Below, piece by piece: positions 49,865-50,550 of a DNA stretch of 64,000 bases. The DNA comes from Escherichia phage vB_EcoM-172859UKE1: the sequence record MZ234025.1, one strand, 5' to 3'. Position numbers and translations under genes: made by a program. Numbering within the stretch: the stretch's first letter is position 1; each line of letters opens with the position of its first letter. A model generated the notes under the pieces. It was not told the DNA's origin. It worked only from the letters and a program-made list of their open reading frames with translations, and searched no databases.

Positions 49865-50095
49865 ATGTCTACTGAAACTATCGAAAAACTGCAGTCTGAA
49901 ATCGTTACTCTGAAATCTCGCATTCTTGATACTCAAGACCAAGCAGCTGCCATTCAGCAAGAATCTCAGCAACTTGGTAGCGCTCTTGCTAAAATCGCTA
50001 ATCTGGTTGGTATCACTGGTGAATCAGTTAAGATTGATGACCTGGTAGAAGCAGTACGTGAACTTGTTAAAGCTGAAACCACAGAAGAAGAATAA
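49865..50095 (+). CDS. 57A: tail fiber assembly chaperone gp57A
   Basis: 76 aa coiled-coil protein after gene 1 (T4 57A 79 aa). Confidence 0.7.
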
Positions 50096-50550
50096 TGAAA
50101 TTTGAGGACTTTTCACAAGGCCTCTACGTCGCAGCTAAATTTTCGGAATTAACACTTGATGCGCTGGAAGACCTCCAGCGCAAATTAAGAATTCCTAATC
50201 CAGTACCACGTGAAAAGCTTCATTCAACAATTTGTTATTCACGTGTAAACATACCATATACTACATCTAGCGGTAGTTATTCTGTTGCCGAATCAGGACA
50301 CTTTGAGGTATGGAAAACTGACGACGGCGCTGTACTGGTTTTAGTTCTTGATTCTGAATATCTTAGATGTCGTCATCAGTATGCACGGGCTTTAGGTGCT
50401 ACTCATGATTTCGACGACTACACTCCACATATAACGTTATCATATAACGTTGGCCAACTATCATTCAGTGGTGATGTAGCTATTCCGGTTATTCTCGACC
50501 GTGAATACAAAGAACCCTTAAAACTAGATTGGGCCGAAGATCTAAAATAA
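50095..50550 (+). CDS. 57B: gp57B-like 2H phosphoesterase (Acb1-like, anti-CBASS)
   Basis: 151 aa (T4 57B 152); two H-x-T/S motifs (HSTI, HITL) typical of the 2H phosphoesterase fold; TAATG-coupled to 57A. Confidence 0.7.

Follow-up and report, generated by a model that had tools for sequence, protein, structure and literature searches.

The question raised by this locus is whether the open reading frame (ORF) lying between gene 57A and ipI encodes a working Acb1, the anti-CBASS phosphodiesterase of T4, or a protein of some other kind, such as the RNA ligase named at this position in several reference annotations. The window, by which is meant the whole stretch of DNA that was analysed, comprises 64,000 nucleotides of record MZ234025.1 from Escherichia phage vB_EcoM-172859UKE1. 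A sequence-only reading, made earlier from the letters of this DNA, had proposed a 151-aa 57B homolog with HSTI and HITL motifs. The features on which the argument draws are as follows.

48482-49072: gene 3 (ORF listed from 48482, end 49072), part of the local gene order
49126-49860: gene 1, dNMP kinase, part of the local gene order
49503-49510, plus strand: TATAAATA, a T4-type late-promoter motif and candidate promoter for 57A-acb1, inside gene 1 and 362 nt upstream of 57A
49865-50095, plus strand: gene 57A, tail-fibre chaperone (Pfam GP57, E=5.9e-23)
50095-50550, plus strand: acb1 (gene 57B), an unbroken reading frame with 151 codons and a TAA stop; predicted 2H cyclic-oligonucleotide phosphodiesterase
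50221-50229, plus strand: first catalytic motif, H43-S44-T45, equivalent to T4 H44/T46 by alignment to T4 Acb1
50428-50436, plus strand: second catalytic motif, H112-I113-T114, equivalent to T4 H113/T115 by the same alignment
50524-50547, plus strand: C-terminal lid, residues 144-151, LDWAEDLK, including W146 (T4 W147); by alignment, the T4 equivalent is 145-152, LDWADDLK
50628-50915, plus strand: ipI, internal protein I (Pfam IPI_T4, E=1.1e-49), directly downstream of acb1

Both proposed motifs were found in this clean ORF, HSTI beginning at residue 43 (H43 at 50221-50223, T45 at 50227-50229) and HITL at residue 112 (H112 at 50428-50430, T114 at 50434-50436). The spacing of about 75 residues that had been given for them is in fact 69, measured from H43 to H112. 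A motif scan of the whole 151-aa protein returned exactly two H-x-[TS] matches, HST at 43-45 and HIT at 112-114, and the product thus carries the two H-x-T/S motifs by which the 2H phosphoesterase superfamily is recognised. No competing ORF was found opposite acb1, where the reverse strand holds only fragments of 30-35 aa. When the protein was shuffled 20,000 times with its composition kept, 14% of the shuffles contained at least two HxT/S motifs. The motif pair alone is therefore weak evidence and not significant, and the case for Acb1 must rest on homology.

Homology to Acb1 was found along the whole protein. The acb1 product scored 197.3 bits (E=1.3e-58) with the Pfam family PF23474 (Acb1), for which the curated cutoff is 27, and its residues 8-149 covered positions 1-144 of the 144-position model. 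The alignment to T4 Acb1 (NP_049750.1, from NC_000866), a check set beforehand, gave 85% identity with both histidines and both threonines aligned exactly, whereas identity to the RB69 57B protein (NP_861847.1) is 99%, with one F70/L difference. Among sequences with solved structures in the PDB, the best match by phmmer was the Acb1 of Erwinia phage FBB1 (7T26, apo; 7T27, with 3'3'-cGAMP), at E=1.1e-58 and 63% identity over residues 9-148. From this identity to 7T26, which extends over 140 residues, we infer an Acb1 fold for the window protein; a single-sequence AlphaFold2 model of it was uninformative, with a mean pLDDT of 37 and a pTM of 0.27. In a tblastn search of 50,697 phage records, a homolog was found in 1469, and in 137 of these it was at least 99% identical. 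A protein 100% identical is encoded by at least two phages among the matches listed (KP869104.1 and KT184310.1). The DNA around acb1 is 96-98% identical to that of Mosigvirus genomes such as HX01, JS09, and SSE1, which places the window in an RB69-like T-even phage.

The product of T4 gene 57B was identified as Acb1, a cyclic-nucleotide hydrolase, through activity-guided fractionation (Hobbs et al. 2022, PMC9117128), in agreement with the statement in the sequence-only reading that T4 57B is Acb1 and degrades cyclic nucleotide signals. In the T4 enzyme, the active site is an HxT/HxT tetrad of H44, T46, H113, and T115, the bases stack on Y12, W74, F107, and W147, and E141 contacts adenine N6 (PMC9117128). 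Residues 145-152 form a C-terminal lid (PMC9117128), the function of which is also treated in bioRxiv 10.1101/2025.08.21.671373. All nine of these functional residues are kept in the window protein at an offset of one (Y11, H43, T45, W73, F106, H112, T114, E140, and W146), so that neither catalytic histidine is lost on proper alignment, H43 and H112 corresponding to T4 H44 and H113. The lid is identical at 7 of 8 positions, the exception being one conservative D-to-E change, and none of the 22 substitutions that separate the protein from T4 Acb1 falls at a reported catalytic or ligand-contacting residue. Conservation of the key positions extends well beyond this pair: H43, T45, H112, T114, Y11, and E140 do not vary across an alignment of 11 sequences that reaches down to 28% identity and took in T4, RB69, FBB1, Serratia PS2, Acinetobacter Acj9, an Aeromonas phage, Cronobacter LPCS28, Vibrio Va3, Klebsiella KP15, and Vibrio phiKT1024.

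With the full-length PF23474 match, the identity to T4 Acb1, and the retained functional residues, the earlier reading of the gene as an Acb1-like anti-CBASS phosphodiesterase is supported, and the ORF is very probably a working ortholog of T4 gene 57B of the Mosigvirus (RB69) type, encoding Acb1, a compact 2H phosphodiesterase that needs no metal. It is not a new gene but an ordinary and catalogued ortholog of a well-studied anti-CBASS enzyme.

Comparison with characterised relatives places the protein nearest to its T-even counterparts. With T4 Acb1 it shares the tetrad, the stacking aromatics, the adenine-reading glutamate, and the C-terminal lid, as well as a position between 57A and ipI and a start codon that overlaps the 57A stop. 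In addition to the substitutions, it differs from T4 Acb1 in being one residue shorter at the N terminus, because the first ATG of the T4 gene is ATA here. FBB1 Acb1 has an identical catalytic tetrad but carries F and Y at the sites of W73 and F106 of the window protein and their T4 equivalents, both of which are thus still aromatic, and it has one extra residue after the position that matches G78. Viral 2H PDE-9 (9Q2G/9Q2Y, deposited as 'Anti-CBASS protein Acb1') belongs to the same 2H fold family and has the same two catalytic histidines, but its sequence match to the window protein is only marginal (E=0.007). This enzyme is active on 3'3'-cGAMP, has an N-terminal rather than a C-terminal lid, and avoids 2'3'-c-di-AMP (bioRxiv 10.1101/2025.08.21.671373).

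Given such variation among relatives, the protein might belong to the Acb1 family but have moved away from T4 Acb1 in its substrate range, for example by avoiding 2',3'-c-di-AMP (no Panoptes trigger) or by preferring other cyclic oligonucleotides. The substitutions relative to T4 could alter such preferences, and substrate and product profiles are reported to differ between 2H PDEs that are fairly close, even within the structural group that holds T4 Acb1 (Doherty et al., bioRxiv 10.1101/2025.08.21.671373). However, the reported catalytic residues are the same as in T4, the lid differs only in its single acidic exchange, and an identity of 85% is far closer than that of the PDE pairs for which differences in specificity have been reported. 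Drift is considered unlikely because every reported ligand-contacting residue is identical to that of T4. There is little chance that the substrate or product profile of RB69-type Acb1 differs measurably from that of the T4 enzyme, for example through less activity on 2',3'-c-di-AMP, the Panoptes decoy; if it did, the protein would be a naturally occurring variant adapted to escape CBASS while not triggering decoy-based sensing.

A second alternative comes from the databases, where 57B is named 'RNA ligase' in the RefSeq entries for T4 (NC_000866), RB69 (NC_004928), and HX01 (NC_018855), the label also carried by PHROG 755; according to it, the protein would be a 2'-5' RNA ligase or a LigT-like RNA-repair enzyme. 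LigT (PF13563, 2_5_RNA_ligase2) is itself a family of 2H phosphoesterases with two HxT/S motifs, and its Pfam model does give a weak, partial match to the window protein (E=0.013). At 15.9 bits, however, this match is well under the cutoff of 27 bits and far from the score obtained with the Acb1 model, the substrates of LigT are RNA ends rather than cyclic oligonucleotides, and the T4 ortholog is the biochemically characterised hydrolase described above. An RNA-ligase function was rejected on these grounds and is very improbable. The name most likely reflects similarity at the level of the 2H superfamily that has been passed on by annotation transfer. No NCBIfam model was found for the acb1 product, and the absence of an Acb1 model from that collection probably keeps the misleading name in circulation. 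In most GenBank records 57B is a 'hypothetical protein', and 'cyclic phosphodiesterase' appears only in OR062945.1 among the matches listed. The gene should be annotated as anti-CBASS phosphodiesterase Acb1 and not under either of these names. Beyond correct annotation, the finding has little significance, as Acb1 is well characterised and has its own Pfam family, and identical proteins are already deposited.

Substitution rates bear on whether the gene is still in use. By the Nei-Gojobori method, dN/dS for acb1 was 0.069 against T4 (dN 0.126, dS 1.84, with synonymous sites near saturation) and 0.048 against RB69. The gene is under strong purifying selection, which argues against a decaying remnant. 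A non-functional remnant holding two motifs by chance, for which only the frequency of the motif pair in shuffled proteins speaks, is effectively refuted by these ratios of 0.05-0.07, the full-length ORF with its end-to-end match to the Pfam model, and the nearly unchanged protein in the 137 phage records; it was rejected as having next to no probability.

For the very probable Acb1 ortholog, a course of action can be proposed from the T4 enzyme. The protein would capture adenosine-containing cyclic di- and trinucleotides in a U-shaped pocket, in which the bases would be stacked on Y11, W73, F106, and W146, E140 would read adenine N6, and the C-terminal lid would shut over the ligand. With the adenosine twisted, the tetrad of H43, T45, H112, and T114 would carry out a metal-independent acid-base cleavage 3' of adenosine, proceeding via a 2',3'-cyclic phosphate intermediate to linear products such as GpAp. 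Because the cyclic signal would be linearised in this way, the CBASS effectors would never be activated.

T4 Acb1 and 9 homologs have been shown to cleave adenosine-containing cyclic di- and trinucleotides without metal, cGG, cA4, and 3'2'-cGAMP are not substrates of T4 Acb1, and T4 without acb1 grows normally in the absence of CBASS but has a >300-fold defect on CBASS hosts (PMC9117128). A literature search returned no paper with an experimental test of RB69-type Acb1. By analogy with T4, we infer the enzyme activity, substrate range, expression timing, and anti-CBASS phenotype of the RB69-type protein, and the same biochemistry and phenotype would be expected here with high confidence. In the setting of phage therapy and host range, the presence of acb1 predicts resistance to CBASS signalling by adenosine-containing cyclic di- and trinucleotides.

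The genomic setting of acb1 is that of its orthologs. The order 3-1-57A-57B-ipI is common to the window, T4, RB69, and HX01, and the core of this order, 3-1-57A-57B, is also present in more distant Straboviridae and relatives, namely Serratia PS2, Acinetobacter Acj9, an Aeromonas phage, and Vibrio Va3. The combination of gene 1, 57A, and 57B that is looked for as Straboviridae context is thus present at the locus. The ipI product is 86% identical to T4 IPI and 97% identical to RB69 IPI. The TAA stop of 57A shares one base with the ATG of acb1 (ATAATG); this overlap of 1 nt (TAATG) compares with one of 4 nt (ATGA) in T4. An overlap of stop and start codons suggests that 57A and acb1 are translationally coupled, as is probably the case, and acb1 is probably transcribed together with genes 1 and 57A as a single unit.

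The TATAAATA motif at 49503 is a candidate late promoter for 57A-acb1, and in T4 the same motif is found 356 nt upstream of its own 57A. Activity that cleaves cGAMP appears ~15 minutes into T4 infection (PMC9117128), and the position of the putative late promoter fits this onset without proving it. Over the whole window, TATAAATA was counted 18 times where 8.2±2.8 occurrences would be expected, most of the copies being on the minus strand and in front of structural genes. One divergent pair, at 47078 (plus strand) and 47093 (minus strand), has a similar counterpart in T4, between genes 4 and 53.

A scan for sigma-70 promoters and terminators from 48300 to 51200 was uninformative overall, with 11 promoter-like sites against 8.9±3.0 expected. 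Its sole notable sigma-70-like site is TTTACA-17-TACTAT at 50565-50593 on the plus strand, ahead of ipI, which T4 shares. This site lies in the 77-nt spacer between acb1 and ipI (50551-50627). The same spacer (50565-50599, plus strand) contains a 12-bp hairpin at 50573-50599 that overlaps the promoter-like site; the spacer folds at -18.3 kcal/mol, with z = -3.6. T4 has a 13-bp hairpin with another stem sequence in the same place, also with z = -3.6, and keeps the TTTACA and TACTAT hexamers, so that the structure is conserved and the stem sequence is not. The hairpin at 50573-50599 lacks the T-run that would follow a canonical terminator; it might act in RNA stability or processing, or occlude the promoter before ipI. 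Searches against Rfam returned nothing at the acb1 locus, the matches in the whole window being two tRNAs only.

The sequence-only reading had also placed acb1, together with Alt, DenV, and the internal proteins, in a dense anti-defence repertoire. The genes concerned, and others in the wider window to which reference is made below, are the following.

397-2484: alt (phrog_802, E=2.8e-259; Pfam ADPrib_exo_Tox)
52422-52576, plus strand: tRNA-Met (CAU) and the adjoining tRNA-Arg (UCU), found with Rfam, ~1.9 kb downstream of acb1
62026-62313: internal head protein gene (phrog_3499), just upstream of denV
62372-62785: denV, pyrimidine-dimer glycosylase (Pfam Pyr_excise; phrog_1183)
62972-63286, plus strand: internal-protein-like gene (phrog_3966, E=4.5e-34) with an MKTY(K/Q)EFI leader
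63312-63641, plus strand: internal-protein-like gene (phrog_3966, E=4.1e-32) with an MKTY(K/Q)EFI leader

That alt, denV, and internal-protein-like genes are present was borne out, but calling this a dense repertoire goes too far: 48 kb separate alt from acb1, DenV is a glycosylase of UV repair and not an anti-defence factor, and only acb1 and ipI form a real anti-defence pair. The adjacency of these two genes is a recognised anti-defence pairing, noted for T4 (PMC9117128), and T4 IPI has been reported to be required for evading the GmrS/GmrD restriction enzyme. The long ORFs from ~2.9 to 47 kb are baseplate, tail, neck, and head genes, as judged by synteny with RB69 and T4. By the same kind of comparison with RB69, an acb2/vs.4 homolog would lie just past the 3' end of the window, at a distance of some 1-2 kb.

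Internal-protein-like genes with an MKTY(Q/K)EFI leader start at 50628, 62026, 62972, and 63312, and the last two, which are adjacent and follow denV, resemble a tandem pair of internal-protein-like paralogs. In RB69, unlike in the window, an extra gene, RB69p156, stands between 57B and ipI, as seen when RB69 L003 21750-22187 is compared with the spacer of the window. It is an internal-head-protein gene that encodes 108 aa with an MKTYQEFI leader, and it is missing from HX01 as well. The presence of this gene in RB69 and its absence from the window and HX01 suggest that the acb1-ipI junction is a site at which internal-protein genes are gained and lost among Mosigviruses, as it appears to be from these three genomes.

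Between ipI and the tRNAs lie three conserved genes (51155-52342, plus strand), namely homologs of tRNA.3 and tRNA.2 and an RB69ORF151-like gene, which belong to phrog_1411, phrog_2023, and phrog_2290; Pfam gave no match for any of the three. Because they stand beside acb1-ipI, they are putative further anti-defence candidates. The tRNA cluster that follows them has two members, as does the reduced cluster of RB69, whereas T4 has eight tRNAs.
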